This document shows positions 6,342-49,389 of a DNA stretch of 64,000 nt, piece by piece (within the stretch, counting starts at the first letter, position 1; each line of letters begins with the position of its first letter). The DNA lies in the IMG/VR virus record IMGVR_UViG_3300025534_000182, positions 1 to 64,000 of that record. One strand, 5' to 3'. A program made the position numbers and the translations under genes. Below the pieces are notes generated by a model. It had not been told where the DNA came from, did no database searches, and saw nothing but the letters and a program-made list of their open reading frames with translations. This stretch comes from a virus.

Positions 6342-6623
6342 TTATTGTTCTCCTTTAAATCGTTTCATTTCATCAATAAGTTGTTTATTCCTATGTTTTT
6401 TCCATACTTCCTTATATTCGATTAATTCTTCTTGAGTAATAATATTTTTATCAAGAAGAATACACAAAATGAAATGCCCAAACTCTTGATTCAACATATC
6501 ATCGGTATAATATTCTTTATTTTCATCTATTTCACCAAAAAACAAATCAAAAATTCTATCCAAAATTAACACTCTCTTTCGTGTGAAACATATCTCACTT
6601 TTACCGAATAACTTTATAACCAA
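6342..6623 (-). CDS. hypothetical protein
   Basis: 93-aa ORF in the operon context. Confidence 0.45.
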   Translation of the reverse strand: MVIKLFGKSEICFTRKRVLILDRIFDLFFGEIDENKEYYTDDMLNQEFGHFILCILLDKNIITQEELIEYKEVWKKHRNKQLIDEMKRFKGEQ

Positions 6624-6681: not shown

Positions 6682-6730
6682 TTGACACTCCCCATGCCTA
6701 AAGGCAGGGGCTTTCTGGTGGTGTGTGATT
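6682..6730 (-). mobile_element. 49-bp miniature IS200/IS605-derived element: RE terminus ...GAGTGTCAA, one subterminal hairpin, LE-type flank, with TTAC immediately 5'
   Basis: 49/49 identity to the LE side of the TnpB element (31796-31844) plus the shared terminal ttgacactc. TAM-like TTAC on the minus strand at 6731-6734. Confidence 0.55.
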
Positions 6731-6776
6731 GTAAATTTTCACTTTCATTTTTCCTCATCCTTTCATCTTGTATTTA

Positions 6777-7589
6777 TTATTTACCCATTGCACCCAAATC
6801 AACAAACGGCATTGCGCCACCAGTTACAGTAGGCAAATGACCATCCCATTTCTCAATCGCTTGTTCCTGAATCTCAATCTTTTTATATTCAATTAAATCA
6901 GGAGTTACTTCTTGCTTCTTCAACTTCAATGCTTCAGCTTCCGCTTTTGCTTGCTCGATTTTTTGTTGTGCCTCAATTTGAATACGTCTCAGATCGTTCT
7001 CTGCTTTTAATGCTTGTTGTTGAGCAACTTGTTTTGCCTCAATTGATTGGTTAAATGCTTCAGAAAATTTGAAATTAACAATATTGATATCATTCACAAT
7101 AAGATCATATTTACCCAATCTCTTTGTCAGTAAATCATTGATTTCACTTGCAACGACATCACGCTTCGATATCAAATCTTCAGCAGCATATTTTGCAGTC
7201 ACTTCTTTTACAATTTCCTGAATTGCTGGATGAATAATAACATTCTCAAAGTTCTTCCCGATATTGTTCATTAAATTAAAAGCTGACTCTTTGTTAATTG
7301 AATAGTTTACCACTACATGAGTTGAAACAGGTTGAAGATCCTTAGAAGAAGCACTAGCATCTGATTCTGCTTTTGTTACTTGTACATTAACTTTAATCAC
7401 AGATTGAATAAAAGGAATTTTAAAATGAATACCCGGATTTAATACATTGTCTCCTAGTTTTCCCATCGTTTTATACAATCCAACGTGACCGTATTGCACA
7501 ATCGAAAAACTGTTCAAAGCAATAATAAGAGCAATAAAACCAATGATTATGTATTTAATTTTATTCATTACAAAATCCAATCTAATCAC
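6777..7589 (-). CDS. SPFH/band-7 (prohibitin/stomatin-like) membrane protein
   Basis: N-terminal TM helix, then HVGLYKTMGKLGDNVLNPGIHFKIPF...VNYSIN, then a long Ala/Glu/Gln coiled-coil tail. Confidence 0.7.
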   Translation of the reverse strand: MIRLDFVMNKIKYIIIGFIALIIALNSFSIVQYGHVGLYKTMGKLGDNVLNPGIHFKIPFIQSVIKVNVQVTKAESDASASSKDLQPVSTHVVVNYSINKESAFNLMNNIGKNFENVIIHPAIQEIVKEVTAKYAAEDLISKRDVVASEINDLLTKRLGKYDLIVNDINIVNFKFSEAFNQSIEAKQVAQQQALKAENDLRRIQIEAQQKIEQAKAEAEALKLKKQEVTPDLIEYKKIEIQEQAIEKWDGHLPTVTGGAMPFVDLGAMGK

Positions 7590-7595
7590 CTTTCC

Positions 7596-8159
7596 TTATA
7601 AAATCCAATCTAATGTGGGCTTTCCGTCATAATCATAATCCCAAACATACCACGCATACGCTAAAACTCCCGATTTGGCTGTTTTTTCTAATGTCCCGCT
7701 ATAGAAATTTAATCTTTTAGAAAATACATAAACTGTTTTTAACGGTGTATTCTTGAATAATTCATATCTCCTTTCGCTTTCTAAGAAATTTAACTTAAAC
7801 AACATTGCAACTTTTCTTTTAGTTACTTTTAATGCCTTCTCAACAAATTCTTGCCCTAATTTATATGGAGGATTAGTTATAATATTGGGAACCTTATGTT
7901 TAGGTTCATATGTAATAAAGTCAATTCCTGATTTTCCATAGCCGCGATCATATAAATCCGATGAAAATACTTTAAATCCTCTTTCGATTAATACTTTGCT
8001 TATTGCGCCATCTCCGCAAGCAGGTTCCCATATGCCTCCAACAAATCTCTCTCTTTCAAGTAAAGCTATTGTTGCATGTGGAGGGGTAGGGTAAAAATCA
8101 TCTTTTTCTCTTTCGCCGCCATTTTTATGACCAGTTAAACCATTCGCTTTTAGTGTCAA
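7596..8159 (-). CDS. DNA N6-adenine methyltransferase (small, motif I before NPPY)
   Basis: DFYPTP, EPACGDG (motif I) and NPPY (motif IV). 4-nt ATGA overlap with the upstream gene. Confidence 0.7.
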   Translation of the reverse strand: MTLKANGLTGHKNGGEREKDDFYPTPPHATIALLERERFVGGIWEPACGDGAISKVLIERGFKVFSSDLYDRGYGKSGIDFITYEPKHKVPNIITNPPYKLGQEFVEKALKVTKRKVAMLFKLNFLESERRYELFKNTPLKTVYVFSKRLNFYSGTLEKTAKSGVLAYAWYVWDYDYDGKPTLDWIL

Positions 8160-9772
8160 TCAACCGCCTCCCTATAGTCTTCAATATAAATTTGCTTTAC
8201 CAATTGTTTTAATCTGAAGTCATAATTCAGGTTTGGTTTTCCAATAACATCAATAGTGGATAGCAATGGTATACTGTCGTAAAATTCCTTATTCGTTCTA
8301 AATTTCATCAAATATGTATCGCCACATTCGATCTTTACAGTATCTTGGTTTTTACCAATTAACTGTTTATCATCAACAAAAAAACCTTTAAATAAGAATT
8401 GCCCTTCTGGTATATCGATTCCATTGATTCGATAAAAGTAATTAATGTTTTTTATTAATTGTTCATTAATTTGATCTGCATTAAATTCAAGGACATATTC
8501 ATTTTCACTTTGAAATTCAATATCTCGAAGTCCATCTAATACCGAATTAATAAAATCATCTATCTTTTCCTCTTCAACAAAAACCCCGCCAGCAGTAGCG
8601 TGACCGCCAGTTCCGTTTGTTTCTGCTAATGTGTCAAAGAATGATTTTAAATCAAATCCAGCATAGGATCTATAACTTCCGTTAAATGTTGCATTATTTT
8701 TTGATAATATTAAACAAGGTTTTTTATATTCATTCGCAATTTCGCCAGCAATAAGACCAGAGTATGATTTACTTACTTCATCATCAAAAACAATAATAAT
8801 ATTATCATAATATAATATTTTGCTTTTAATACGATTATAATGACTAGCTTGTTCAATTTTTCTCTCATTATTCAATGAATCAATCTGATTTACAATTTCT
8901 TTTGCTTCATTCTGATCATCTGTTAGTAATAAATCAATAACAAGATCAATCCTATCTAGTCTAGCAGCGGCGTTTAATAGAGGAGTAATACTAAAAACTA
9001 CATCTGTTGAACTTATATATTTTGGATTTTTATTTTTTGCTTTTAAAATTGCAAGCAACCCAACATTTAATATATCTCCTAATCCCCTATTCACTATCGC
9101 TCTGTTTTCTGGTTCCATCATACTCATCATATCAGATAACAGCCCGACTGCCGCTAAATCGCATAAATCATCCGATTTATTTGTATTCAATTTTTCATCA
9201 ATTGCCTGACAAACTTTCCAAGTTAAAGCTGCACCGCTTATATTTTTGTTTGGATAACAACAATCATCTTGTTGTGGATTAACAAGAATACAATAATAAT
9301 TTTTAGTTGTAACAACGTGATGATCAATTACAATAACGTCAACACCTTTGTTTTTTAACTCTTTGCACTCTTTCCAGTTTTCTGAAGAACTATCCATTAC
9401 GATCAATAAATTCGTATCTTCTGGAATTTTGTCAATTACGGTGTGTAACCCATGTCCTTTTAATCTCGAACCAAATATGTAATCAACATTTTTTGTAAAA
9501 TTTCTTAGATACCTATACATTATTGCTCCGCTAGTACAACCGTCTGGATCGCAGTCTGGAAATAATGTAATTTTTTCTTTGTCGTTAATTGCATTAGTAA
9601 TTCTTTTGATTGCAGGTTCGATATTTTTCAAATCATATGGGTCATTTAAATCTGATGATGGCGGATCGAGAAATCTGCTTAAATCAGTAATTCCATAAAT
9701 TTTACACAACTTATCGTATAATCTGTCTGTGTCAGAGTATGGTATTAAAGGTTTTTTTAATTTCCAGTTCAA
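8156..9772 (-). CDS. DHH-family phosphoesterase (RecJ-like ssDNA exonuclease or NrnA-like)
   Basis: Asp-rich DHH motifs (IVMDSS, VIVIDHH) and a DHHA1 GGH motif (GTGGHATAGG). 538 aa with a TTG start. Confidence 0.72.
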   Translation of the reverse strand: MNWKLKKPLIPYSDTDRLYDKLCKIYGITDLSRFLDPPSSDLNDPYDLKNIEPAIKRITNAINDKEKITLFPDCDPDGCTSGAIMYRYLRNFTKNVDYIFGSRLKGHGLHTVIDKIPEDTNLLIVMDSSSENWKECKELKNKGVDVIVIDHHVVTTKNYYCILVNPQQDDCCYPNKNISGAALTWKVCQAIDEKLNTNKSDDLCDLAAVGLLSDMMSMMEPENRAIVNRGLGDILNVGLLAILKAKNKNPKYISSTDVVFSITPLLNAAARLDRIDLVIDLLLTDDQNEAKEIVNQIDSLNNERKIEQASHYNRIKSKILYYDNIIIVFDDEVSKSYSGLIAGEIANEYKKPCLILSKNNATFNGSYRSYAGFDLKSFFDTLAETNGTGGHATAGGVFVEEEKIDDFINSVLDGLRDIEFQSENEYVLEFNADQINEQLIKNINYFYRINGIDIPEGQFLFKGFFVDDKQLIGKNQDTVKIECGDTYLMKFRTNKEFYDSIPLLSTIDVIGKPNLNYDFRLKQLVKQIYIEDYREAVD

Positions 9773-9844
9773 CTAATCACGTCCTTAAAAAAGATTACTT
9801 ACTTAATATATCATATTTTTAGTTAAATGTCAATATTTTGTTTT

Positions 9845-10216
9845 CTAAATTTTATTAAGCTCAACTATGAACTCAATTCCATTTTCATTAAAAATTTCCC
9901 AAGAAATATAATCATCGACATTAATTATCTCCAACTTATTCAGGTATCCGTTTGCTTTTTCTCCGAGTTCTTCAACCACTTTAATAACGTCTGGATGTGT
10001 GCGAATTTCTTTGTCATATCGATCAACAAATTCATACTTTCCATAAACGTAAGCATATATATTGCTTTCACTTCGATCAATAATTTTAGCAGTTGAATCT
10101 TCCGGCTCTCCATTAATCCCTACTTTGGTTGTCTTCCAACCCAACTCGATTAATTTTTCAAATGCTTTATCTGACAACTGAAAAACGCCTTCACCTTTAT
10201 TGATTACAACTTTCAT
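9845..10216 (-). CDS. hypothetical protein
   Basis: 123-aa ORF. Confidence 0.5.
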   Translation of the reverse strand: MKVVINKGEGVFQLSDKAFEKLIELGWKTTKVGINGEPEDSTAKIIDRSESNIYAYVYGKYEFVDRYDKEIRTHPDVIKVVEELGEKANGYLNKLEIINVDDYISWEIFNENGIEFIVELNKI

Positions 10217-10251
10217 TATATCATCCCTTTTCGTATGATAAAAGACAGTTT

Positions 10252-10683
10252 TTATTTACTCAATTTTTTCAATTGCTTTTTTAAACTTTTAATTTTTGCT
10301 TTTATATAAGCAATTTGATATCCTTTTTCTGCGTCATACACATCTTCGGGTAAACACTTAGATACACCTTTGCTTCCATCTGGTAAAATAACTATTGTAG
10401 CCATATCATTTCTAATAACTTTTACTTTTTCTTTTGAATCTAAATTTTCAATATATTCAACTTTATTTCTTGTATTTTCGTTATCAAGCAACTCAAAATG
10501 ATTAATTAATTCTTCCTTACTAACACCTAAACCCAATACTCCATTTTTTAAAATAATGTAATTTTCATTCATTTTATTAACAACCCAAATCTCATTAACA
10601 ACCCAAATCTCTCCTGTTCGGTTATAAGGAAATCCATTTAATTCTTTGATTTGTTTGTACTCTTGCCCGATTTTAATATTCAT
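10252..10683 (-). CDS. hypothetical protein whose C-terminal 50-aa domain is paralogous to the 27308..27673 product; contains an in-frame 18-bp tandem duplication
   Basis: TIVILPDGSKGVSK...GYQIAYIKAKIKSLKKQLKKL aligns with TIVILEDGSKGIAK...GYKIAMKRAQIAKLQKELEEL. Confidence 0.5.
   Translation of the reverse strand: MNIKIGQEYKQIKELNGFPYNRTGEIWVVNEIWVVNKMNENYIILKNGVLGLGVSKEELINHFELLDNENTRNKVEYIENLDSKEKVKVIRNDMATIVILPDGSKGVSKCLPEDVYDAEKGYQIAYIKAKIKSLKKQLKKLSK
10576..10611. repeat. perfect 18-bp tandem duplication (attaacaacccaaatctc x2), in frame (EIWVVN x2)
   Basis: Direct reading of the sequence. Confidence 0.85.
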
Positions 10684-10705
10684 TTCTATATCAACCTCCT
10701 ATTTT

Positions 10706-12034
10706 TTACATTACTAATTGATATTTTTCAGCAAATTTTTTAATTATTTCATTTTGTTCTTCTGTCGGTGGATTATTTAATTTCCCTCTTGCTTGAGTTA
10801 TATGACCATTTTTTACTTCTATTGTTACTAAAGGATGATCTATATCATTTCTGTCCCTAAGAAATAATATAGTAGATAAACCCTTTCTAACTTTATTTAC
10901 ATATGAACCAACACAATGCCCTAATACGTTACCTTCTTTAATTAATTCCTCTGGTTCTTTAGGCGGAAATATTTTATATCCGTTATATGAATATTCATAT
11001 TTTTTATTTATTTCATATGATTTTTTCCATTCCTCCATCTCGATTTCATTTAATTTTATTCTATAGTTTCTACTAGCAATATCATGTGCTGTTCTTAGAT
11101 ATTTGGGATAACGATCAAATCTTTCATATCCCATTTCCGTTGTCATTCTTATATAATCAGCATATTCACTAATTGCCAAATTAGCGGCAAGTCCTTGAGA
11201 TACATCACATTCAAAATAAATGTATCTTATGAATTTTTTAATTGGCAAATTATATTGATTGGCAATTTGCAAAGCTGATCTATAGGTGGTTTTTTTATAT
11301 ATAAAAGAAAATTCATTATTGAAAAATTCCATCATTTTGTCAATTCCAAATTCATCTTCTAATGTTTTTATGTAGGCTAGATAATTAATCATTTCATTAT
11401 CAGCCGTATCGTTATTAATTTTTTGAAGTTTATGAAATGGAATGTTATATTTTTTTACCATTTTCCACTGTGTTTTACTTAATCCTAATATTTCCATTGG
11501 ATTTTTACCATTAGGATTGATAATTTCTGAATCCTTATTTAATTTTACTCCTGCTTTATGCAACAATTCAAAATAACTATGTTTGGTAATCAATCTATAA
11601 AAAAATCTTCCAAACATCTCCGTTCGTTCATTATCCATTGCACCAAACAATTTAAATGCTTCATCATATATTCCTCTATTATTTTTTGTTGACAAAATTT
11701 CAAATATTTTATTTCTTTGTTCATAATCTTTTGGAAATATGCTATCCACATTTCTAACACTAAATTTGACATCTTTCAAATTTCTTTTTATCCAGTATTT
11801 TTTATGCCTTAAATCATAATACATTTCTGAAACTGTTCCATTTTTACCGGCCAATGGATCTGTTTCGCTTGGTTCATGAATGTAATAAATATGAAATCCA
11901 TAATCCATCTTTTCTTTAACATACAGAGTACCAACTAATTTATTTGATTTATTATCAAATGATTCATACTTTTCATAATTTGAATTTCTTATTTGTTGCT
12001 TAAATTCTTCAATTTTTTCCTTTAACCCTAACAT
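10706..12034 (-). CDS. hypothetical protein, possibly PcfJ-like (C-terminal GHCVGSY...FLR block)
   Basis: 442 aa. The C-terminal HCVGSYVNKVRKGLSTILFLRD recalls PcfJ-like domain proteins. Recognised from memory only. Confidence 0.35.
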   Translation of the reverse strand: MLGLKEKIEEFKQQIRNSNYEKYESFDNKSNKLVGTLYVKEKMDYGFHIYYIHEPSETDPLAGKNGTVSEMYYDLRHKKYWIKRNLKDVKFSVRNVDSIFPKDYEQRNKIFEILSTKNNRGIYDEAFKLFGAMDNERTEMFGRFFYRLITKHSYFELLHKAGVKLNKDSEIINPNGKNPMEILGLSKTQWKMVKKYNIPFHKLQKINNDTADNEMINYLAYIKTLEDEFGIDKMMEFFNNEFSFIYKKTTYRSALQIANQYNLPIKKFIRYIYFECDVSQGLAANLAISEYADYIRMTTEMGYERFDRYPKYLRTAHDIASRNYRIKLNEIEMEEWKKSYEINKKYEYSYNGYKIFPPKEPEELIKEGNVLGHCVGSYVNKVRKGLSTILFLRDRNDIDHPLVTIEVKNGHITQARGKLNNPPTEEQNEIIKKFAEKYQLVM

Positions 12035-12083
12035 TAATTGATACTCAATCCTTTCATTTTATTTATATGTAATATTTTTATTT

Positions 12084-13151
12084 TTAAAATTTAACTTTCT
12101 TTTTATTTCTATACAAATCCAAAAAAGCCTCTCTTCCCAAATCAGTTGGAGAATGTTTTTCTTCAACCGAAAATACATCATCTTCATCATACATTTCATA
12201 AACCAATCTTGTTTTACCAAATTTAGCGGCCTGAACTCTTATATCCTCTCTTGTTTTGTCTTTGTCAAATGCTAATACAATCCTAATTTCATTTCCAAGT
12301 GACTTAATAAGATTCACTTGTACAATGCTTATGTCACTACAACCAAGTGCCACGCAATTACGTTTCCCCCATTGGGAACTCAACCAACATGTTTTTTCTC
12401 CCTCATAAATGATTACCTCTTTTTCTTGTAAAATATAATACAAAGCTCTATGCCAGTTATAAAGAACAGTCGGATAATATTTAAAGTAGTAATAAAATTT
12501 TGGTATATTCTTTTTTTCCCAATCTTTTTCTAACGTTCTCCCTTTAATATTAATTAACTCGCCGCATTCGTTATGTATCGGGAATATTACTCTATTGTAC
12601 TGAACGTCTAATCCGATCTGAAATTCTAATTGAGTTTTATAATTTACTCCTTGTTCTAAATATAATCTTGAAGGAACCATTACAAAGTAATCCAATATTG
12701 ATTCGTCAATAATTTCATTTTCATCAGTATATGTAATTTGTTTTCTTCTATATTTCTTTGCTTCTTTTAACCATTTTAAAAGTTCATCTTTTTTTGTTTT
12801 TTTATAATGTCCATTCAAATACTCATGATATCCAAGTGTTTCACAAATCCATTTTTTCGAAGCGAACAACTTATTCGTACATTCTGTTTCATCTTTGCAT
12901 TCAAAGACAATATATCCGACTAAACCGAAAATGTCTATTCCAGATATTCCTCGTGATCTTATTTTTGATGACAGATTTTCATTAAAATATACTTGTACGC
13001 TTCTCGGATTATCTGAATTAAATTTATCTGGAAGTTGCGCTTCACATCTTAATTGCTTTTCTTTTATATTTGTGCAACCCATTGCTTCAAGCAATTGAGT
13101 TATTTTATTTTCGTTTAAAATTCTTTGCTTAATTTCTTTTAGTTCGTTCAT
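12084..13151 (-). CDS. Toprim-domain DNA primase-like protein
   Basis: IYEGEKTCW (Toprim Glu) and AFDKDKT (DxD) at the C-terminus. Sits directly downstream of the helicase. Confidence 0.5.
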   Translation of the reverse strand: MNELKEIKQRILNENKITQLLEAMGCTNIKEKQLRCEAQLPDKFNSDNPRSVQVYFNENLSSKIRSRGISGIDIFGLVGYIVFECKDETECTNKLFASKKWICETLGYHEYLNGHYKKTKKDELLKWLKEAKKYRRKQITYTDENEIIDESILDYFVMVPSRLYLEQGVNYKTQLEFQIGLDVQYNRVIFPIHNECGELINIKGRTLEKDWEKKNIPKFYYYFKYYPTVLYNWHRALYYILQEKEVIIYEGEKTCWLSSQWGKRNCVALGCSDISIVQVNLIKSLGNEIRIVLAFDKDKTREDIRVQAAKFGKTRLVYEMYDEDDVFSVEEKHSPTDLGREAFLDLYRNKKKVKF

Positions 13152-13163
13152 CTTGACCCACTT

Positions 13164-14702
13164 CTAAAATGCGGTATTAGATGTTCTGCCCATTTTTACA
13201 TAAGCAACTTCATGAAAAGTATTAAAATCATAATTTACTTCATACAATATTTGCCGATCAACAGGCCCGAAACGATTTTTTGGTAAAAATAAAATTAGAT
13301 ATGTTTTATCTTTATCTAACTCATATTCTTTTTTATACCATTCATCAGTTAATTCATCTTTTTCCCAATTATACGCAAATATTTGATGTTTTCCTCCGGG
13401 CATTTCATCAGCATACAATAACCTACCAATCATAACAACCGAAGCGACTTCAACAATCTCAAGCGCTTTGCCAATAACGCTCAAATCAAGATATCTGTAC
13501 TCTTTCCCAATTTTTAATTGAACAGTTGCCAGCATACCGATGTTATTTGCAGATACTTTAATACAGTCATAAATCTCTTGGGCTGCATTACTAAATGCAA
13601 GCCATCTGGCCTCTTCTTTTCCAGATAAATCAGGTTTAAATGTATCGAGTATCGCGTAATTATAACCAAGTGGTTTCATCAGATTTAATCTGCTAATAAC
13701 ATCTTTTACGCGATACTTCTGCATATCATAAAATTTTATTAAATCTTTATTAAATTGATTTAGCCATTCCTTTGATTTTTCAAGTTTATCTAAGGTTTCC
13801 TTATCAAAGTTACCTTCAGACAACTTTTCCCTTGTAACATAATCTCTCAGTACACTATTTGCAACTGTAGCCAAAAGCAATCCTTGATTCTTAAATATGT
13901 CTTCTTCGTTGGCGAAAAACATTCCTTTTTCGTTATTTTTAATTAAACTCAATACAAATTTCTCAATACATATAGAACTCTTACCTACGCCTGAACTCAA
14001 TACAAGATATAAGAGTTGCCCTTTTCTCCATCCTTTTATCAACTTATTCAGTCTGGGGGAATTATGTAATTCAAGACCCATTCCCTCCCCTTCATTTAAT
14101 CTTTCGATAGTTCTGTCTAAATTATCTAAAAAATTATACTCTACTACTTCACCGCAATTTATATGAGAAAATATTTTATTAGTTTTATATTGAAAGAAAC
14201 TTTGAAGTTGTTTCAGAGTCATTTTAGTTAATTTGCTTATTAATTCTTTATCTTCAACATCAATAATCCCCTCTTCTTGTGCCATCCGTAAACTTTCATA
14301 TTTTTGAATTTCACTAAAATGATATTCATCATTTTCCTTATCAGAATCGCATTCAACAATCAAGTCCTCTATTAACGAGTAACCACCGTTTTCATTATAA
14401 TATTCGAACCATGATTTTTTCCCTTCTTCCTTTGGTCTTGAAGTTAAGAATGAATACACAGTAATATCATCAAATGATCGAATACCATTATTATACATTT
14501 CTCTTCCTATGTAAAATAGAAAAAACCAGAGTTGCTCTGTAAATGTTGAACTTTTAATGTTATGTAGTTTATATTTTTCATATAATTGCGGTGTTCGCCA
14601 AAGATAACCGATAAAAATTGATTCATGAATTTTTGAAGGATCGACAAACTCAGGCAAATATTCGATAGACTTTTTCTTTCTTTTCTTGCTGATAGCAACC
14701 AC
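13164..14702 (-). CDS. replicative DNA helicase-like P-loop ATPase (DnaB-like)
   Basis: Walker A SSGVGKSS. 512 aa, adjacent to the primase. Confidence 0.5.
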   Translation of the reverse strand: MVAISKKRKKKSIEYLPEFVDPSKIHESIFIGYLWRTPQLYEKYKLHNIKSSTFTEQLWFFLFYIGREMYNNGIRSFDDITVYSFLTSRPKEEGKKSWFEYYNENGGYSLIEDLIVECDSDKENDEYHFSEIQKYESLRMAQEEGIIDVEDKELISKLTKMTLKQLQSFFQYKTNKIFSHINCGEVVEYNFLDNLDRTIERLNEGEGMGLELHNSPRLNKLIKGWRKGQLLYLVLSSGVGKSSICIEKFVLSLIKNNEKGMFFANEEDIFKNQGLLLATVANSVLRDYVTREKLSEGNFDKETLDKLEKSKEWLNQFNKDLIKFYDMQKYRVKDVISRLNLMKPLGYNYAILDTFKPDLSGKEEARWLAFSNAAQEIYDCIKVSANNIGMLATVQLKIGKEYRYLDLSVIGKALEIVEVASVVMIGRLLYADEMPGGKHQIFAYNWEKDELTDEWYKKEYELDKDKTYLILFLPKNRFGPVDRQILYEVNYDFNTFHEVAYVKMGRTSNTAF

Positions 14703-14705
14703 TCC

Positions 14706-15278
14706 TTACAAGAAGTCTGATATATCTTTATCATCTTTTTTATTTATATTTTGTTTTTTATAATCTAAAGACATATCACCAATAAAAGTTTCTCTTTTCA
14801 TTTCTTGAACTTTTTGTTCATGCTCCTTTTTCTGTTTAATAATATTGAACGCCTCGTTAATTTTGTTCATCATAATACTTATACAGTAATTAATTGCTTT
14901 GACATCTACACTTCCGTTTAGCCTATTTTTTATTGCCCATTTAATATCTTTTTCAGCTAACTGATACGCTAAAAGCATTACTTGATAAGGTACACCTTTT
15001 TTATACCTTTGCACTTCTTTTCCATTAATTATTTCAACTCCGTTTCTTAATTTTTGCAATCTGTATATATTACCTCGTGGGAGTATTATGATTCCATGCA
15101 GATTTAATATATATCTATATAACTTATCCCATGCTTTAAGTTCTTTTGCTTTAAATTTCTTGTGCTTTAAAAAATCGTTATGGCATTTGCCAGCATGGAA
15201 ATACATATTGTCTTCATAGATCATCTTTTCTTTGTCATCTAACTGAAGACATGCTCTACATTTTACCCTTCTTCCCAA
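14706..15278 (-). CDS. hypothetical protein with N-terminal CxxC...C..H zinc motif
   Basis: 190-aa ORF. Confidence 0.5.
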   Translation of the reverse strand: MGRRVKCRACLQLDDKEKMIYEDNMYFHAGKCHNDFLKHKKFKAKELKAWDKLYRYILNLHGIIILPRGNIYRLQKLRNGVEIINGKEVQRYKKGVPYQVMLLAYQLAEKDIKWAIKNRLNGSVDVKAINYCISIMMNKINEAFNIIKQKKEHEQKVQEMKRETFIGDMSLDYKKQNINKKDDKDISDFL

Positions 15279-15291
15279 TATTATCTTCCCC

Positions 15292-15654
15292 TTATTCCAA
15301 TTCCGTACTTAGAATTTCGGCAAAATCTATCCATTCGTATCCTTCATCAAATTCGATCCTTATCTTTTTGCTATATGGATTAATATTAGTCACAACGCCA
15401 GTTACTTTTCGATCTTCAAATTCGCCAAATATTACAACAGAAATAGTCTTTTTAGTGTGAAAAGATTCATTTATTTTTTGAGAAATAAGATCCCATTCGT
15501 CCTCACAAAGAATCGGCTTCTGTTTTTTAAGTTGAGAACGGTTATATTCATTGATTGCTTCTCTATGCTCGGGAAGTATCATCCTAGAAGATTCCCACAT
15601 TCCATTACCAAAAAGTTTTTTACTCATTTTTATACCCTCCAACATAACGAACAT
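15292..15654 (-). CDS. YolD-like protein
   Basis: ILPEHREAI ... KPILCEDEWDLI ... VVIFGE...VTGVV..I matches the layout of Bacillus YolD-family proteins (from memory). Confidence 0.4.
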   Translation of the reverse strand: MFVMLEGIKMSKKLFGNGMWESSRMILPEHREAINEYNRSQLKKQKPILCEDEWDLISQKINESFHTKKTISVVIFGEFEDRKVTGVVTNINPYSKKIRIEFDEGYEWIDFAEILSTELE

Positions 15655-15708
15655 TTGTTTGTATAATTAATATATATCAGATATAGTTTGTTATGCAAGA
15701 GGAGTTTT

Positions 15709-15882
15709 TTTAAAAAGTCCAACACACAGTAAAAATTCTTTTTAAAATTAATTTTGCCACTTGTTCATCTAAATCGTCAATTTTTCTTTCAATTTCATTT
15801 GTTGATATACTATATTTTAATTCAATAATTATTTTATCTGCCTCTTTAATTTTTTGATATTGATCATCAAAATCGACATTCA
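15709..15882 (-). CDS. small hypothetical protein (57 aa)
   Basis: AGGTGAT SD 4-5 nt before the ATG, charged coiled-coil-like sequence. Below the ORF-track cutoff. Confidence 0.35.
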
Positions 15883-15914
15883 TTTATATCACCTAATAAA
15901 AACATCATTTTATT

Positions 15915-15958
15915 ATACTTTAATGGCAGCATTTAGTGATTAATGCTGCCATTAAAGT
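15915..15958. repeat. perfect 18-bp-stem hairpin (tactttaatggcagcatt / aatgctgccattaaagta) in a 580-bp non-coding region
   Basis: Direct inverted repeat with no U-tract on either strand. Confidence 0.6.
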
Positions 15959-16185
15959 ATATTGTAAGCAGAGAACGGAGCGCGAAATTTAGTAATATTA
16001 CCTACAGACAAACGGACGTGCGTAAATCGTAAATGATGTAATTCGTCAAATGTTAACCGTTAATTGTATTACATTCAATAACCAATATTTAACCAATATT
16101 TTTATATACATAAAGTGTTCTTTGATACGCTCAAAGATAAGCGTTGCTCACAATTCTCTACTTTTGCTGGTTTCTGACCAGCTTT

Positions 16186-16234
16186 CAAAAGAGAAATTTT
16201 TCTCTTCTCAAAGCTAGACAGAAAAACTGTCTAG
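16186..16234 (-). terminator. two or three stem-loops downstream of the 16235 gene stop, one (agagaaa/tttctct) followed by UUUUG
   Basis: Inverted repeats ctagacag/ctgtctag, agagaaa/tttctct and gctggt/accagc read on the minus strand. Confidence 0.35.
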
Positions 16235-16771
16235 CTACAAGATATACCGCTCTGCTCCTTCGAACTCAAACACAATCTTATGATTTGTTGCTTGAATAGT
16301 TTGCGATAACAAGCGAGCTTTCCTTTCTAATTTGATTGCTCTCTTGCGGTATTCTTCTACATCGTACAAAGCATACGTAACGGTAACAACAGAATTTCCA
16401 TTATTTAAAAATCCTCTATTATTGATGTTAGTTTCTTGTTGTTTTCTGTTTCCAAATGACTTTAAAATGTTCACTTCACCTTGTAACTGTTTCGCCAACT
16501 CAATTGCTGTATAGATCGAAATCTTCTTTCCGTCCCATTCAATTGTCGGCTTTAAATTTTGTTCATTAATAAGTTGATCAATATCAAGATAGTCTTGTCT
16601 TGTTTGAGACAATTCTGCTTCGATAACTTCAATATTGCGCTCTGGTACTTGATATTTTTCTCCTTTTTCAACTGTAATCGTCGAAACCTGATTCCTTTCT
16701 TGGATTAATTCTTGAATGCGTTTTGATATTGCGCTTCTAATATCAATTGCTTGAGCTAATGTGATTTCCAT
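16235..16771 (-). CDS. hypothetical protein
   Basis: 178-aa ORF with TGGAGG SD. Confidence 0.55.
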   Translation of the reverse strand: MEITLAQAIDIRSAISKRIQELIQERNQVSTITVEKGEKYQVPERNIEVIEAELSQTRQDYLDIDQLINEQNLKPTIEWDGKKISIYTAIELAKQLQGEVNILKSFGNRKQQETNINNRGFLNNGNSVVTVTYALYDVEEYRKRAIKLERKARLLSQTIQATNHKIVFEFEGAERYIL

Positions 16772-16819
16772 ATATGTACCTCCATATATTTTATTTTTTA
16801 ATATCCCAAAAAACCGATC

Positions 16820-17125
16820 TTATTGAACCCTTTTTACTCTTACGACGTGAAATTCGTTAAAGTTAAATTCATTCTGTTTAACTGGATTTTCATTTATTTT
16901 CACAATACGCAAATACTTGATTCCCCAAGTGCCATCTTTATACCATTCCTGAATAGGAATTGGTTGATTGTATTTGATCGAATCCTCAAGAAAATCTTCA
17001 GGAACATCATTTAGATTGTGTCCCCAAAAATTCAAATAATAACGATATCCATTTTTATCGGAATCAAGTACAACACATTTCGTTCCATCTTCTAAAGTTA
17101 GCCAAGTACCACTTTTGATTTTCAT
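16820..17125 (-). CDS. hypothetical protein
   Basis: 101-aa ORF. Confidence 0.5.
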   Translation of the reverse strand: MKIKSGTWLTLEDGTKCVVLDSDKNGYRYYLNFWGHNLNDVPEDFLEDSIKYNQPIPIQEWYKDGTWGIKYLRIVKINENPVKQNEFNFNEFHVVRVKRVQ

Positions 17126-17174
17126 AATTTAAACCTCTTTTATTTTTTATATTTTTTTTGTAATATTTGAGATT

Positions 17175-17249
17175 TGGTGGAGCCGGAGAATTACGATATC
17201 TCGACCGACCGCTTATGAGGCGGATGCTCTTCCTCTGAGCTACGGCTCC
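17175..17249 (-). tRNA. tRNA with anticodon CAU (Met or Ile2 type), CCA encoded, non-canonical T-loop
   Basis: On the minus strand: GGAGCCG-UA-GCUC-AGAGGAA-GAGC-A-UCCGC-CUCAUAA-GCGGU-CGGUC-GAGAU-AUCGUAA-UUCUC-CGGCUCC-A-CCA. Features are a 7-bp acceptor stem, D arm, U33 and A37 flanking CAU, and a T-loop AUCGUAA with a swapped 54-58 pair. Confidence 0.6.
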
Positions 17250-17286
17250 ACGATTAATTCTTTTTACATCATTGAATATATCATAT

Positions 17287-17583
17287 TTATCGCTTAATGT
17301 CAATATTTTGTTTTTTATTTTTTTTTCTGTTTTTTGCCAACCTTTCTGCTACCGCTTTTCTTTGTTCGTCTGTCATTGTTCTTCCTTTACCCGATCTAAA
17401 AGAAATCTGATTAAATTTTAGATTGAAATAATAATGCGCTCCATACTGATCTACTTTATTCGGCTCAATTCCAAGTTTACGTAGTTTATTTATAACCTTA
17501 GTTTGAAGGGTATATATATTCCATGTATTGGTTTCGTCACAACAATTAATAACCGTTTCTCTTTCTGCTGGAGTATAGCCCAT
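17287..17583 (-). CDS. hypothetical protein
   Basis: The start was moved to the MGYTPAE Met, which has an AAGAGGT SD. Confidence 0.5.
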   Translation of the reverse strand: MGYTPAERETVINCCDETNTWNIYTLQTKVINKLRKLGIEPNKVDQYGAHYYFNLKFNQISFRSGKGRTMTDEQRKAVAERLAKNRKKNKKQNIDIKR

Positions 17584-17624
17584 TTCGCATACCTCTTTTT
17601 TAATTAATTTAAACAATCATCTTA

Positions 17625-18104
17625 TCACAAATCCCCATTGTGATTAATCTTAATAATGTATGTAACTCTTCCATCATATCTTTGATCTGCTAATAATTTG
17701 CCTATGTACATCTTCTGTATACCCTTAGCGCAACAAATATTAACTTCTTTTGTTTCAGGATCTAATAATTTTGTTTTTAAAATTTGTAAAAATTCATTAA
17801 CTTGTCTTTCTTTTTCATCATATGGTATAGCAGACCAATTTTCATATAAAGTTTTTACCATTTGTTTTTTCACTCCTCCGTTGTTAACATTTTCATCAAA
17901 AACTAATGATTTTTTAGGTTTATCCTGACAATTATCTGATTTTTTTAATAATTCCTCCATCTCATTAGCAATTTTTCGTACATTGTTTAAAAATTTTCTT
18001 TTGGTATCAATTAATTCGTTTTGTTTTTCAAGAAGATTTTTTGCTTCATTCGCTATTTTGTTCACTGATCGATTCCCTTTAAAACTCCAAATTCTCTTTA
18101 TCAT
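17625..18104 (-). CDS. hypothetical protein
   Basis: 159-aa ORF. Confidence 0.5.
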   Translation of the reverse strand: MIKRIWSFKGNRSVNKIANEAKNLLEKQNELIDTKRKFLNNVRKIANEMEELLKKSDNCQDKPKKSLVFDENVNNGGVKKQMVKTLYENWSAIPYDEKERQVNEFLQILKTKLLDPETKEVNICCAKGIQKMYIGKLLADQRYDGRVTYIIKINHNGDL

Positions 18105-18118
18105 AAAATTCCTTCTTT

Positions 18119-18289
18119 TTATTGGTTTTTCTTTTGGTGTTTATCTAATATTGCTTCTAATTCCTTAACTGTACGCTTTTTATAATATTCAATAGTTTCA
18201 GAAAGCAAATTTGATTTAAATGGTAATAAATTTTTTTCATGAAGATAATAAATCAATCCCTCTTTATTTAAAACATAATCATGTTTCAT
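18119..18289 (-). CDS. small hypothetical protein (56 aa) translationally coupled to the upstream MTase
   Basis: Its ATG lies 8 nt before the MTase stop. The longer 84-aa version would overlap the MTase by 95 nt. Confidence 0.35.
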   Translation of the reverse strand: MKHDYVLNKEGLIYYLHEKNLLPFKSNLLSETIEYYKKRTVKELEAILDKHQKKNQ

Positions 18290-19202
18290 TAATAATTTTT
18301 TGGTCGATTCCTTCACTGGACAGCAACCTTTCATTAGTAATTTCGATAGCTCTTGAGTTAATATCACAACCAATATACCTTCTATTTAATTCTTTGGCAA
18401 CTACTAATGTGGTTCCTGAACCACAAAAAAAATCTGCTACTACATCGCCCTCATCCGTTGAGGACAATATAATTCTTCTTAACAACTCTTTAGGCTTTTG
18501 TGTGTCATAATTAACAGATTCATAATTTTTTCCATGTGAAAGATTTGGTATATCGTTCCATATTGAACCTATCGCTAATTTAAATTCATCCAAGTAATAT
18601 TTTTTATACTCCTTACCAGAAGAAGTTTTATGTATTAATCCATTTTCTTTCATTCTTTTGATTGATTCCAAAGAATAATCTCCTAAAGTAACAATTTTAT
18701 ATTTTCTCCCAGTTGGTTCACTATATCTAAATTCTTTAAGTTGAGTATAAGTCAATTCATCACCTGATTTATATTGCTGATAAAATTTATTATTTTTGCT
18801 TTTTGAATAAAAAAGAATATTGTCAAACTCCCTCGGCCATTGTTTAGATGTTTTTTTAGCACCTTTGCCAACGGCATCTCTTTGCCATATAATCTCATTT
18901 CTATAATTATCTTCGCCAAAAATTTTATCTAACTCGACTTTCAAATAGTGAGACAGACGATAATCCATATGTAAGTATAGAGATCCTGTTGTTTTTAGAA
19001 GTCTATGCATATGTATCAAACGTGGAATATACCAATCAATAGCATCTTTTGTTGTTCCAAGTTTATCATTATAATCTTTAAATTTTCTTCCTGTATTATA
19101 TAAAATATCACAATAAATAAGGTCAATACTCTCACTCGGTAGACTCTTCATTAATTCTAAATTATCCATGCAATATATTTTATTTATTTCTATATTTATC
19201 AC
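18279..19202 (-). CDS. DNA methyltransferase (N6A/N4C beta-class) with unusual motif IV DILY
   Basis: Motif I FFCGSGTT at the C-terminal end and IDLIYCDILYN in the motif IV position. Confidence 0.7.
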   Translation of the reverse strand: MINIEINKIYCMDNLELMKSLPSESIDLIYCDILYNTGRKFKDYNDKLGTTKDAIDWYIPRLIHMHRLLKTTGSLYLHMDYRLSHYLKVELDKIFGEDNYRNEIIWQRDAVGKGAKKTSKQWPREFDNILFYSKSKNNKFYQQYKSGDELTYTQLKEFRYSEPTGRKYKIVTLGDYSLESIKRMKENGLIHKTSSGKEYKKYYLDEFKLAIGSIWNDIPNLSHGKNYESVNYDTQKPKELLRRIILSSTDEGDVVADFFCGSGTTLVVAKELNRRYIGCDINSRAIEITNERLLSSEGIDQKIINET

Positions 19203-19223
19203 CTCATTTTTCCAATAAAATTC

Positions 19224-20057
19224 CTATTTTATTGGATAATCCTCATTAATACTTTCCAATCTTAAATTTGCAATTTGTATATACTCAGGAGAAATTTCAA
19301 AACCTATGTATTTTCTTTTATTAATTTGTGCCATCTTAGCTGTTGTTCCACTACCCATGAATGGATCTAAAACAATATCACCTTCATTTGACCATGATAA
19401 GATATGGTCTTCAGCAAGTTTTTCAGGAAATATCGCAGGATGTTGAAAAGCGATTTTATCTTTTGTTGCTTGATTAAATCCAACAGAATAACTCCATACA
19501 TTTGTTTTATATTTTTTTGTATTTCTACCTCTCTCAGTAGAAAAAGTTTTAATTTCGCCATTGGGCATTCTTTGTGCGGATTTTTTACCATGAGAATTAA
19601 GTTTTGCATCAACTTTAATTACATTAAATGTCTTGGGTTTCCCCTTGCTAAAAACAAACATATATTCAAAACATGGCTGATACCGATTATGTTCCAATGG
19701 AGTTGGGTTTTCTTTAAGATAGATCATTGTATCATGCAAATTAAACCCGCAAACATCCTTAAAATACAATGCTTGACGAAAACTTGTTCCGGTCTCACTC
19801 CCATTAATTGTCGCATCTGCTACAATCCAAACGACAACACCTCCGAGCTTCGTAACTCGATACAATTCCTTAGCAATCTCCTCAAATTTAAATGTATAAC
19901 CGTTATAAGTACGTAAATTGTCGTAAGGTGGAGATGTTACAGTTAAATCAATACTTTTATCTGGCAATAATTTCATTCCCTCTAGACAATCCATTTGATA
20001 AATACGATTTATTTCAAGACTTCCAAGTAATTCTTTACTCAATAAACTACCCTCCAT
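19224..20057 (-). CDS. DNA methyltransferase (N4C/N6A beta-class, SPPY)
   Basis: IDLTVTSPPYDN (motif IV) and DPFMGSGTT (motif I). Confidence 0.8.
   Translation of the reverse strand: MEGSLLSKELLGSLEINRIYQMDCLEGMKLLPDKSIDLTVTSPPYDNLRTYNGYTFKFEEIAKELYRVTKLGGVVVWIVADATINGSETGTSFRQALYFKDVCGFNLHDTMIYLKENPTPLEHNRYQPCFEYMFVFSKGKPKTFNVIKVDAKLNSHGKKSAQRMPNGEIKTFSTERGRNTKKYKTNVWSYSVGFNQATKDKIAFQHPAIFPEKLAEDHILSWSNEGDIVLDPFMGSGTTAKMAQINKRKYIGFEISPEYIQIANLRLESINEDYPIK
19985..20057. repeat. about 70-bp DNA segment nearly identical to 25620..25691 (5' ends of two MTase paralogs)
   Basis: Encodes LLGSLEINRIYQMDCLEGMKLLPDKSID in both. The DNA aligns with few mismatches. Confidence 0.6.
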
Positions 20058-20069
20058 AATTCAATAAAA

Positions 20070-45331: not shown

Positions 45332-45731
45332 ATCTCCATGCGAATATTGAATATCTATCCATCGCAATGATCTCCTCAATATCTCCCATTTGAATAATAA
45401 ACTGTTCAATATCATTAAAATCGTATGGCCCCATATCTCCCCTCGTTTTACTTAATCTTTTTAGAACTGTTGGAAGATGTATTCCAAAACAACCTTCTCT
45501 TTGCGGATTTACTGTTAATTCTTCCGCTGCAATTGAAATACTAAGCATATTGTCTACAAATTCTTCCGCCATTTTTCTTTTAAAAGGACAATTTATTGGC
45601 ACATAAATATAATTTTTATCCCACGGTATTTTTCCTTTTCCAAACCAAATTATCATCCACATAGGACATAATTTATCATTGAAATAATCATAATATACAG
45701 ATATCTTTGCCACCCTAATCCACATCCACAA
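45330..45731 (-). CDS. hypothetical protein
   Basis: 133-aa ORF. Confidence 0.5.
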   Translation of the reverse strand: MWMWIRVAKISVYYDYFNDKLCPMWMIIWFGKGKIPWDKNYIYVPINCPFKRKMAEEFVDNMLSISIAAEELTVNPQREGCFGIHLPTVLKRLSKTRGDMGPYDFNDIEQFIIQMGDIEEIIAMDRYSIFAWR

Positions 45732-46461
45732 TGTAACTTTTTACTTGACCTTGAATCATAACATCATTTAAGGATAAAATCCTTGGTTCAACTTTAGGGT
45801 TGGACGCTTGCAGTATCACATTGTTCCCTTCGTAGTAAATTCTTTTAAGCGTTGCTTCTTCTCCGTCAATTAATACCACTCCTATTTTTCCATTCTCTAC
45901 ATAATTTTGACGACGAATAAGCACTTTGCATCCATCTGTTATACCATCTCCGATCATACTGTCTCCTTTGACTATTAAATAAAAATATTCACCATCTGAA
46001 ACTAATTTTTTTGAAACAACCTCATATCCTATAATATTCTGTTCGGCTATCAAATCATATCCAGCCTTGATTGTTCCATAAATTGGTATCTCAACAATAT
46101 TAGAATCATAAATATTAATAATGTCTTGTTGAAGCGAATTGTTTTTAACTTGTGATTTTCTATATGCTTCCATAATTTTTGATATAACAGAATCACTTTT
46201 CTTTTTTATTTGTTCTATTTTATGCGTCAAGTCATCTTCATTTAAGTATCCTGCTCTTCGTAACAATTCTTCATACGTGATGTATTTAAAACATTTTGAC
46301 AATTGCTCTAATATTTCAGGACTGGTTCTTGTAGTTCCAGATTCAAGTCTACTAATTGTCGCATGGTTAACTCCTGACTTCTCAGCTAGTTCACGTTGCG
46401 AATTATATCCTTCTCTTTTTCTTATTTCTGCGAAGAATTCACCAAACTCCTTTAAATCCAT
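45715..46461 (-). CDS. CI/LexA-like repressor (N-terminal XRE HTH plus C-terminal S24 peptidase)
   Basis: QRELAEKSGVNHATISRLESG HTH. C-terminal GDSMIGDGITDGCKVLIRRQ...K S24 Ser/Lys dyad. The start was set at MDLKEF. Confidence 0.7.
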   Translation of the reverse strand: MDLKEFGEFFAEIRKREGYNSQRELAEKSGVNHATISRLESGTTRTSPEILEQLSKCFKYITYEELLRRAGYLNEDDLTHKIEQIKKKSDSVISKIMEAYRKSQVKNNSLQQDIINIYDSNIVEIPIYGTIKAGYDLIAEQNIIGYEVVSKKLVSDGEYFYLIVKGDSMIGDGITDGCKVLIRRQNYVENGKIGVVLIDGEEATLKRIYYEGNNVILQASNPKVEPRILSLNDVMIQGQVKSYIVDVD

Positions 46462-46493
46462 ATTAATCACCCAAGATATAATGATATCATGTA

Positions 46494-46531
46494 TGTTGCT
46501 TACATGCAACATTATAAAAAAGTGTTGCAAC
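46494..46531. promoter_or_regulatory. operator palindromes TGTTGC-N6-GCAACA (46494-46511) and GTTGCAAC (46524-46531) in the divergent promoter region
   Basis: Overlap candidate -35 hexamers TTGCAT-17-TATCAT (repressor) and TTGCAA-17-TACTAT (plus-strand gene). Confidence 0.5.
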
Positions 46532-46592
46532 TTACGAACGTATGTGCTACTATAAAACTACCAAGGGTTTAGAAACGAGAGGAGAATCGGCA

Positions 46593-46865
46593 ATGGAAGT
46601 TAAAGTATTTATCTGCATTGTTAATAGTAGCAAAAACAGTAACATTTGTGAATGGCTGTTAACTATCAATGAAAAATATGCCAACCAGATAGATCGGAAT
46701 TATAGTTTAGCAACCATTGATGATTTGCATGATTGGGTTGCAGCCACAGGTGAAGTGTTTAGTGGTATCTTAACAATTAAAGAAGGTCGTTGCGAATGGA
46801 CTGAAACCGAATACATAAATCATCTTGGTGATATAGATATTAAGTGTGGTTATGAATTGTTATAG
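46593..46865 (+). CDS. hypothetical protein (divergent early gene)
   Basis: AGAGGAGAA SD before the ATG at 46593. Confidence 0.45.
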   Translation: MEVKVFICIVNSSKNSNICEWLLTINEKYANQIDRNYSLATIDDLHDWVAATGEVFSGILTIKEGRCEWTETEYINHLGDIDIKCGYELL

Positions 46866-46895
46866 CCTATCCGAATAGGATAGGCTATATTATTA
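46863..46895 (+). terminator. hairpin tagcctatcc-gaat-aggataggcta followed by a U-rich tract
   Basis: Perfect 10-bp stem at the end of the plus-strand gene. Confidence 0.5.
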
Positions 46896-47440: not shown

Positions 47441-47483
47441 TCCTTCACTTCCCATGAAACACAAATTTTATTTACCATCACAT

Positions 47484-47714: not shown

Positions 47715-47751
47715 AAATACTTTCCTCCTATAAAATACCGATTTCCTTGGA

Positions 47752-49380: not shown

Positions 49381-49389
49381 ATACTTCTC

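Follow-up and report, generated by a model that had tools for sequence, protein, structure and literature searches.

Single-hairpin IS608-like elements of 46 and 49 nt in a phage genome, probable remnants of hairpin-to-hairpin deletion

The window, by which we mean the whole 64,000-nt stretch analyzed here (positions 1 to 64,000 of IMG/VR record IMGVR_UViG_3300025534_000182), is a phage-like genome of 31% GC with nearly all genes on the minus strand. Its nearest matches in INPHARED (GenBank phages) are Bacillus phages, distant and at gene level, and around either of the two miniature elements described below this collection yielded no close relatives, only distant gene-level matches or none. 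Two IS605-type elements, oriented as the miniature elements, are present in the window, which thus codes for an intact Y1 transposase and two TnpB proteins. The features of interest, with left and right ends abbreviated LE and RE, are as follows.

30518..31833, minus strand: element B, a TnpB-only IS605-type element (tnpB 30667..31713)
52376..~54080, minus strand: element AB, an autonomous IS605-type element (tnpA (Y1) 53564..53977, tnpB 52476..53558)
6682..6730, minus strand: copy 1, a 49-nt single-hairpin ('terminal-only') IS608-like element, recognized by identity to IS ends
6731..6734, minus strand: host TTAC directly upstream of copy 1, serving as target and left cleavage site
6730..6715, minus strand: LE spacer of copy 1, AATCACACACCACCAG
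6711..6714, minus strand: LE-type guide AAAG of copy 1, at the 5' foot of the hairpin, pairing with TTAC
6690..6710, minus strand: hairpin of copy 1, CCCCTGCCTTTAGGCATGGGG, a subterminal imperfect palindrome
6682..6689, minus strand: RE tail of copy 1, AGTGTCAA, terminating in the right cleavage site TCAA
42093..42138, minus strand: copy 2, a 46-nt single-hairpin element whose spacer and hairpin (CCCATGTCTTAATACATGTGG) are unlike those of copy 1
42139..42142, minus strand: host TTAC of copy 2
22089..22092, minus strand: TTAC of an unoccupied site at which a related contig has a 49-nt miniature element

The two full elements define the end structure of the family. With a slash marking the cleavage point, the left end of element B reads TTAC/AATCACACACCACCAGAAAG-hairpin and its right end CCAAGAAT-hairpin-GAGTGTCAA. 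Element AB was found in all other assemblies examined, and its TnpA contains a Y1_Tnp domain (E = 1.4e-44). From the sequence we infer that the left boundary of AB is TTAT/, which would match its guide AAAA; assemblies of the same phage provided no empty site to confirm this boundary. The right ends of both elements have the form CCAAGAAT-hairpin-(G)AGTGTCAA/. In IS608, the tetranucleotide just 5' of each hairpin brings the cleavage site to TnpA, and the left guide pairs through A+16:T-3 and A+17:T-4 (PMC3201880, PMC5934647). The guide and site pairs of the present family are AAAG with TTAC on the left and GAAT with TCAA on the right, the cut sites lying about 20 nt from the hairpin on its 5' side and 8 nt on its 3' side, and the right-end sequences of B and AB show that the family uses the IS608 code.

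Copy 1 combines parts of both elements. In context its minus strand reads GTGAAAATTTAC/AATCACACACCACCAG-AAAG-CCCCTGCCTTTAGGCATGGGG-AGTGTCAA/AAACCAAG, flanked by GTGAAAATTTAC on the 5' side and AAACCAAGAAAA on the 3' side; the flanks joined as an empty site would give AAAATTTAC/AAACCAAG, and the ends of the element joined head to tail would give GAGTGTCAA/AATCACAC. A preliminary description of this DNA had placed the element at exactly these coordinates and had correctly recognized an LE-type 5' flank, one hairpin, an RE-type 3' terminus and a host TTAC on the left. It had also reported a 20-nt block identical to the left end of the TnpB element. The alignment that it had proposed as a check upholds the identity and doubles the length, since nucleotides 1-40 of copy 1 match the LE of element B exactly, and the last 29 nt match the RE of the tnpA+tnpB element AB exactly, so that the RE hairpin and tail of AB are the same as those of copy 1. 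The right guide GAAT, found in both full elements, is missing from copy 1, where the sole guide position is occupied by AAAG. Having a single palindrome, copy 1 is not a two-palindrome PATE (palindrome-associated transposable element), and having neither terminal inverted repeats nor a target duplication it is not a classical MITE; in size and layout (49 and 46 nt, one palindrome) the two copies agree with the terminal-only form of PATE.

In DNA folding, the copy 1 hairpin gives a stem of 4 bp, a bulged T and a further 4 bp, capped by a TTTA loop, which is how the imperfect palindrome of IS608 is arranged. Copy 2 has a weaker stem (5 bp, bulged T, 2 bp). Folding of the whole oligonucleotide is not significant for copy 1 (z = -0.85) or for copy 2 (z = -0.13 at -3.1 kcal/mol), so that folding energy alone separates neither copy from shuffled sequences. 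The case for an element rests on identity to IS ends and on insertion polymorphism. Copy 1 is intergenic and lies on the coding strand. An RNA or terminator role for it was considered and rejected, as no T-run follows the stem and the folding z is unremarkable.

Copy 2, which the preliminary description had also noted at 42093..42138, is present there with TTAC, a hairpin and AGTGTCAA. It reads TTAC/GATCAACCGCCAGAAAG-CCCATGTCTTAATACATGTGG-AGTGTCAA/, the same layout as copy 1, and with its left part split, TTAC/GATCAACCG-CCAGAAAG-CCCATGTCTTAATACATGTGG-AGTGTCAA/; its flanks joined as an empty site would give AAAAATTAC/AATAATATAGG. Copy 2 matches the IS ends only in the conserved flanks CCAGAAAG and AGTGTCAA. 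No parent was found for it, a scan for its 3' arm and tail returning one chance match within a large ORF. A relative of the gene adjoining copy 2 was found in contig L037, in which the downstream region is not syntenic; it was uninformative.

The component motifs occur in the window more often than in every shuffle. GAGTGTCAA occurs 5 times (0.29 expected from shuffles), four of these being minus-strand IS ends and the fifth, at 57450 on the plus strand, having no adjoining hairpin; CCAGAAAGCCC occurs 3 times (0.15 expected from shuffles); and the 21-nt hairpin with up to 3 mismatches occurs 5 times (0.00 expected from shuffles). Furthermore, a covariance model of the family gave five significant sites in the window, namely the two miniature elements (53 bits for copy 1 and 47.4 bits for copy 2), the left end of B and the right ends of B and AB, and Rfam has no family at these sites. 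Both copies recur without change in independent assemblies of this phage (from ENA, JGI and Logan samples), copy 2 in two other assemblies, and are therefore not assembly artefacts. The contig L077 terminates within the left end of copy 1. Exact-protein look-ups of the flanking genes recovered the same phage from other samples, with both copies and AB in every one of them and no alternative empty or filled state. When the 53-nt unit was searched by BLAST against GenBank phages, every match was the right end of a full TnpB element (Geobacillus virus E3, Nodularia phages, Alicyclobacillus phage KKP_3916) and none was a single-hairpin copy.

An exact-pattern scan of viral contigs found only one other copy, in IMGVR_UViG_3300033802_000220 (L001), a contig that aligns to the window at about 79-98% nucleotide identity by region. 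Its miniature element is identical to copy 1 over 49/49 nt and is situated at a different locus, at which the window reads uninterrupted GGGAATTTTTAC/AATCACAAGGG. The 49-nt block is thus present or absent exactly 3' of TTAC, without target duplication, between flanks that are about 99.6% identical. The positions of contig ends suggest that window sites 22089 and 22285 may be polymorphic for insertion. This filled/empty pair shows that the boundaries are real and fixes the right boundary, and the gain or loss of a block 3' of TTAC without duplication is the signature of the IS200/IS605 family. In L001, element B occupies the same site as in the window at 98.4% identity. Near the copy 1 locus L001 carries an RE-only remnant abutting a TTAC that, in the window, falls within the ORF 6342..6623; beside this remnant everything upstream as far as an SPFH gene has been deleted. 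The extra miniature element and the RE-only remnant of L001 indicate that IS insertion and decay are ongoing in this lineage and, together with the Y1 and two TnpB proteins of the window, bear out the earlier proposal that the short elements mark past or ongoing IS activity in a phage.

Parental or intermediate forms were also sought. The left end of copy 1 was found elsewhere only in this known relative contig, and no parent element was found with the exact LE and RE combination of copy 1. The preliminary description had suggested looking in related genomes for a full TnpB element at these positions; that search came back empty, since among the relatives neither a full element nor a PATE occupies the site of copy 1, of copy 2 or of the L001 miniature element. 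In the relatives available the miniature element is shared, the region is deleted or the site is empty.

To describe the distribution of such elements more widely, the pattern CCAGAAAGCCC-N14-18-GGAGTGTCAA was scanned in three collections. Genome contigs of 185,579 species genomes gave 3 matches, in two Nitrospira MAGs and one Thermoprotei MAG, with one match per contig, and metagenome contigs gave 26; a looser pattern added three more copies in another viral contig. Dropping duplicates and one chance match left 25 distinct loci. The combination of LE guide and RE tail is found in 25/25 of these, TTAC lies 16-20 nt 5' of the hairpin foot in 22/25, and the hairpin is stable in each, its inner stem varying through largely compensating changes. 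Several of the metagenomic families are represented at 2-3 separate loci. When TnpA and TnpB were searched by tblastn against 30 pattern-hit loci, no TnpA was detected at any of them and TnpB fragments lay near only 2/30 (L025 and, weakly, L006); such fragments are so rare that the loci must be regarded as solo elements and not as ends of full elements.

In 3/25 loci the first 4-7 nt of the element recur in its right flank (AATCACA at L001, TAAGC at L004/L017 and AATA at L005/L008), and a permutation test for three loci with a match of at least 4 nt gave P ~0.001. The flank repeat of L001 makes its insertion boundary ambiguous by 7 nt, and loss of the L001 element through microhomology-mediated slippage may be an alternative to TnpA action.

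The clearest indication of how these elements arise comes from a different phage contig. The 52-kb contig IMGVR_UViG_3300014911_000009 contains three miniature elements, each at its own site, together with a two-hairpin PATE that belongs to their family, the latter being the only informative result of a scan with the 17-mer hairpin core, which otherwise gave mostly chance matches. This PATE is about 185 nt long, with LE hairpin TCCCTGAATTTATTCAGGGGA and RE hairpin CTCCTGAATTTATTCAGGAG. All three miniature elements of the contig read TCCCTGAATTTATTCAGGAG, which joins the LE-specific 5' arm of the PATE (TCCC...) to its RE-specific 3' arm (...GGAG) and has a C.A mismatch at the stem base. Chimeric arms of this kind are expected from a crossover within the shared 15-nt core and are not expected from selection for a good hairpin. 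Read from these arms, the crossover falls inside the hairpin. In addition, the miniature element at L006 has the same 3' arm and tail as the RE of a TnpB element close by, but another 5' arm. Copy 1, too, is a composite of a B-type LE and an AB-type RE, with a hairpin that is compatible with a crossover between LE and RE.

Based on these observations, we propose that a full element or a short two-hairpin PATE would first have inserted 3' of TTAC by the single-strand 'peel and paste' route, and that its core would then have been lost between the two subterminal hairpins, acting as direct repeats of 15-22 nt, probably by replication slippage or single-strand annealing. What would remain is the LE spacer with the LE guide AAAG, one hairpin, possibly chimeric, and the RE tail to TCAA. 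All that can survive a deletion between direct repeats is a single repeat with the LE flank before it and the RE flank behind it, which accounts for the LE guide and RE tail being found together everywhere. We infer that collapse took place in situ at the sites of copy 1, copy 2 and the L001 element. Low copy number fits such sporadic decay better than a MITE burst. Recombination between LE and RE hairpins had been put forward in the preliminary description as one of two possible origins, and it is this one that the chimeric arms in IMGVR_UViG_3300014911_000009 favor, as does the strain comparison in Haloquadratum described in the paper that named PATEs (PMC3119063). Given that the filled and empty flanks are about 99.6% identical, it would be more economical for the 49-nt unit to be gained or lost in one step than for an insertion to collapse afterwards.

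The guides of copy 1 bear on what such a remnant could still do. Under the IS608 rules AAAG is cognate to TTAC, so binding at the left end and cleavage at TTAC should still work; GAAT is lost, which leaves TCAA without a cognate guide, and self-excision is not expected. The TnpA dimer, moreover, has two hairpin sites, and a single hairpin presumably cannot take up both. On this analysis the miniature element is most likely inert, a scar in the way that a solo LTR is one, rather than a mini-transposon able to move by itself. Taken together, we put the probability that copies 1 and 2 are 'terminal-only' IS608-like derivatives formed by hairpin-to-hairpin deletion, and most likely inert, at roughly 0.7.

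The alternative that survives best, although we consider it unlikely, is that the single-hairpin unit is a non-autonomous transposon moved to TTAC sites by TnpA in trans, the enzyme being one that AB (52376..54080) or a host copy could supply. A Y1 transposase is indeed encoded in the same genome, and the exact 49-nt presence/absence 3' of TTAC between nearly identical local flanks, the identical 49-mers at two sites in the lineage (copy 1 and L001), the three near-identical miniature elements at three sites in one 52-kb phage contig and the metagenomic families with copies at 2-3 distinct loci are all what transposition of the short unit would produce. For six strain-specific copies of 52 bp, Dyall-Smith et al. 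(2011) also put mobility forward as a possibility. The more specific proposal, that the 46-49-nt unit is a functional transposon in which one hairpin acts as both ends, seems to us slightly less probable again. In that case GAAAG may provide overlapping guides, AAAG for TTAC and a shifted GAAA for TCAA: GAAA, one base out of register within the flank, equals GAAT at 3/4 positions, and as a near-cognate it would make right-end cleavage possible via the shifted guide. Against transposition of the unit, the RE guide GAAT is absent and AAAG is mismatched to TCAA at 2/4 positions under the IS608 rule, one hairpin would have to serve two hairpin sites of the TnpA dimer (as judged from IS608 structures), the three-copy contig carries the mismatched chimeric stem and not a selected one, and copies per genome are few, with no burst seen. 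Furthermore, every observation that supports a mobile unit is also explained if a PATE or IS transposed and then quickly collapsed. Slippage in a PATE would act between hairpins about 135 nt apart, with no need of a mobile miniature element. If the unit did prove mobile, it would be the smallest mobile DNA known in prokaryotes. As a corollary of this reading for phages, the 49 nt would part the TnpB target-adjacent motif (TTAC) from its former target, and a solo allele might then withstand re-invasion (homing) by the allele with TnpB during mixed infections.

The second origin offered in the preliminary description, in which TnpA itself deleted the core by aberrant cleavage and joining, is much harder to reconcile with the junctions and appears very improbable. 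Synapsis of both hairpins would be expected to juxtapose the deletion end-points, but TnpA cuts at TTAC/ and TCAA/, well outside the hairpins, and the junctions fall within the shared hairpin core and not at these cleavage sites. It is scarcely credible that a terminator, a regulatory stem-loop or some other common hairpin between genes, or else an artefact of assembly, resembles IS ends here by chance. The unremarkable whole-oligo z-scores and the intergenic position on the coding strand would suit this reading, but it is contradicted by the 40-nt and 29-nt identities to IS ends of the same genome, motif counts above every shuffle, a 49-nt insertion polymorphism precisely at TTAC, a stem with no T-run after it, no Rfam match and, for an artefact, identical copies in independent assemblies.

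If hairpin-to-hairpin deletion is the correct reading, core deletion of a kind first reported from a haloarchaeon also takes place in bacterial phages and in IS608-like elements of distant phyla, and each miniature element records IS traffic in a phage lineage whose genome still holds an active-looking tnpA+tnpB element. Scars of about 50 nt without a gene are, for these very reasons, unlikely to be reported by IS annotation tools. They break short-read assemblies (e.g., L077), can truncate small ORFs, and serve well to mark earlier IS and TnpB traffic in phage genomes. Analysis of the guides makes the question of mobilization more precise, as the left end is predicted to be cleavable and the cognate right guide is gone. 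The current understanding of IS200/IS605 transposition is unaltered by these findings.

Several known systems share features with copies 1 and 2. Solo LTRs offer an analogy, in that recombination of directly repeated ends leaves a hybrid repeat as a scar, although neither the class of element nor the length of the repeats nor the route of recombination is related. Like REP sequences and their REPIN and RAYT relatives, the miniature elements have a single short palindrome, a conserved 5' tetranucleotide and a link to Y1 HUH enzymes, and REP singlets are thought to be decayed REPINs. Unlike REP/RAYT systems, they have no GTAG-type motif (the flank being CCAGAAAG) and no high copy number (2 in 64 kb), and their flanks are ordinary IS605 ends with TTAC and TCAA. 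A RAYT gene was not identified in the Pfam scan, which covered only the Y1 protein of AB, encoded next to tnpB.

The hairpin of IS608 from Helicobacter pylori is CCCCTAGCTTTAGCTATGGGG, nearly the same as CCCCTGCCTTTAGGCATGGGG here, including the bulged T, and in both cases TTAC lies about 19-20 nt 5' of the hairpin foot. The guides AAAG and GAAT of the family and the right cleavage site TCAA are likewise those of IS608. In contrast to the miniature elements, IS608 has two ends and encodes tnpA and tnpB, and its RE tail measures 10 nt as against 8 nt here.

Two-hairpin PATE or PATE-like elements have been described from Haloquadratum, Geobacillus stearothermophilus (Meers et al., 2023, PMC10055086) and Halanaerobium (PMC7290912). 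They resemble the miniature elements in lacking a coding gene, in having IS605-type ends and in lying 3' of the target tetranucleotide, and they depend on TnpA in trans, as the miniature elements would. Two-hairpin PATEs keep both hairpins and both guides, often with an omega-RNA scaffold, over about 150-300 nt, whereas the miniature elements have one hairpin and the LE guide only. The preliminary description had set copy 1 apart as smaller than such PATEs; this is true of its size, but a 52-bp single-palindrome form was already included in the paper that named PATEs.

That paper was the only precedent for single-hairpin IS605 derivatives that our literature searches yielded (PMC3119063). Dyall-Smith et al. 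(2011, PLoS One) describe 52-bp 'terminal-only' forms in Haloquadratum walsbyi alongside the PATEs. HqIRS46, whose two palindromes form a 22-bp repeat, is present at the same site in two Haloquadratum strains, complete in one of them and core-deleted in the other; ISHwa23 was reduced from 1500 bp to 52 bp between 19-bp repeats; and all six strain-specific insertions were of the 52-bp form, which the authors suggested 'can be mobilized' (PMC3119063). As described there, these forms share with the elements studied here a length of about 50 bp, one near-terminal palindrome, the 5' and 3' ends of an IS605-type element, deletion between directly repeated palindromes (19-22 bp in Haloquadratum) and the lack of a target duplication. 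In contrast to the Haloquadratum cases so described, none of the relatives available here carries a complete element at the same site, the host is an AT-rich Bacillus-type phage using an IS608-like code (TTAC with AAAG, TCAA with GAAT), and further copies occur in Nitrospira, an archaeon and metagenomes. The sections on terminal-only forms make no mention of chimeric arms or of guides, that is, of an LE guide kept and an RE guide lost. Copies 1 and 2 are of the same kind as terminal-only PATEs, and extend them to new hosts and to another IS subgroup.

At three of the 25 loci carrying solo elements (single-hairpin IS608-like units of the IS200/IS605 type, or minis), the element's initial 4-7 nt recur in the right flank (permutation P ~0.001), as in TTAC followed by AATCACAC... 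and GTCAA followed by AATCACAAGG. The loci concerned, and the window site, are as follows:
L001 2668..2730, in a relative phage contig (IMGVR_UViG_3300033802_000220)
L004 2343..2400, another solo locus
L005 1620..1680, another solo locus
Window 22082..22092, the 'empty' site

The right flank repeats the element start, and the 'empty' site in the window is therefore TTAC+AATCACA. Possible causes of the repeat are a left end (LE)-like target preference, the footprint of an earlier element, or gain or loss mediated by microhomology.

A 29-nt indel separates the window from the relative directly 3' of another TTAC(A) (window ~22117, minus strand; L001 2614..2642), and an ENA contig (L088) terminates exactly at the indel point; together these suggest a population polymorphism in the intergenic region at window ~22117. 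A JGI contig from the window's own phage (L087) terminates exactly after TTACAATCA (window 22285..22293, minus strand), and its end base is the point where an allele with an LE insertion of the type found in the TnpB-only element B (TTAC followed by AATCAC...) would branch from the uninterrupted sequence. The end of L087 may reflect an insertion polymorphism in that JGI sample.

Both minis of the window lie just within short ORFs (6682..6758 and 42088..42201, minus strand), where they are read in the same frame, starting at the TAC of TTAC:
6682..6758, minus strand, ORF across copy 1: MKVKIY, then NHTPPESPCL and a stop
42088..42201, minus strand, ORF across copy 2: MEDISMYCPNCEIYIKNY, then DQPPESPCLNTCGVSK and a stop

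Removal of either mini would restore a 32-aa ORF. The form annotated by gene callers is a truncated one of 34 aa (L073 1957..2061, on a contig from another assembly).

The LE of element B (window 31780..31833, minus strand) has an outer stem around the TnpA-binding hairpin, with a folding z-score of -2.3. CCACCAG, 5' of the hairpin, pairs with a 7-nt arm 3' of it that ends in TGGTGG, and the 3' half of this outer stem has been lost from the minis. A different guide was observed at the LE of the tnpA+tnpB element (window 54044..54084, minus strand), which has AAAA in place of AAAG, and a TTAT on the 5' side of the hairpin foot at a distance of 16 nt. AAAA/TTAT is precisely the pairing expected under the IS608 rule, so TTAT is the probable target of the tnpA+tnpB element; no empty site that would confirm its TTAT boundary was found.

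In the related phage, a remnant of the right end (RE) only, CTACCCAAGAAT-CCCCATGCCTAAAGGCGTGGGG-AGTGTCAA, is present close to where copy 1 lies in the window (L031 3805..3885; window 6436..6439), and the TTAC adjoining this remnant corresponds to one within the window's ORF 6342..6623. Beside this remnant the relative has a deletion of ~340 nt that includes the copy 1 site. The RE-only remnant and the deletion represent a second decay route, one-sided deletion. On the phage contig with three minis, an extended perfect palindrome, TCAACTA-CCCCTGAATTTATTCAGGGG-TAGTTGA, is preceded by TTAT (L042 3322..3380); it is a related hairpin.

Further features of the phage genome were located in the window:
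62758..62830, minus strand, Pistol ribozyme match (Rfam RF02679, 67.8 bits vs a gathering score of 34.5, full-length model)
17178..17249, minus strand, tRNA gene (Rfam RF00005, 50 bits)
50478..51590, minus strand, GmrSD_N-domain protein (annotated on matching ENA and JGI contigs), its gene following the tnpA+tnpB element at a distance of ~0.8 kb downstream

All IS-derived ends in the window (6682..54080), belonging to two minis and two full elements, have one orientation, with the minus (coding) strand as top strand. The relative's mini and element B, in regions colinear with the window, match this orientation. The shared orientation would be consistent with a preference of IS200/IS605 elements for one strand at insertion.
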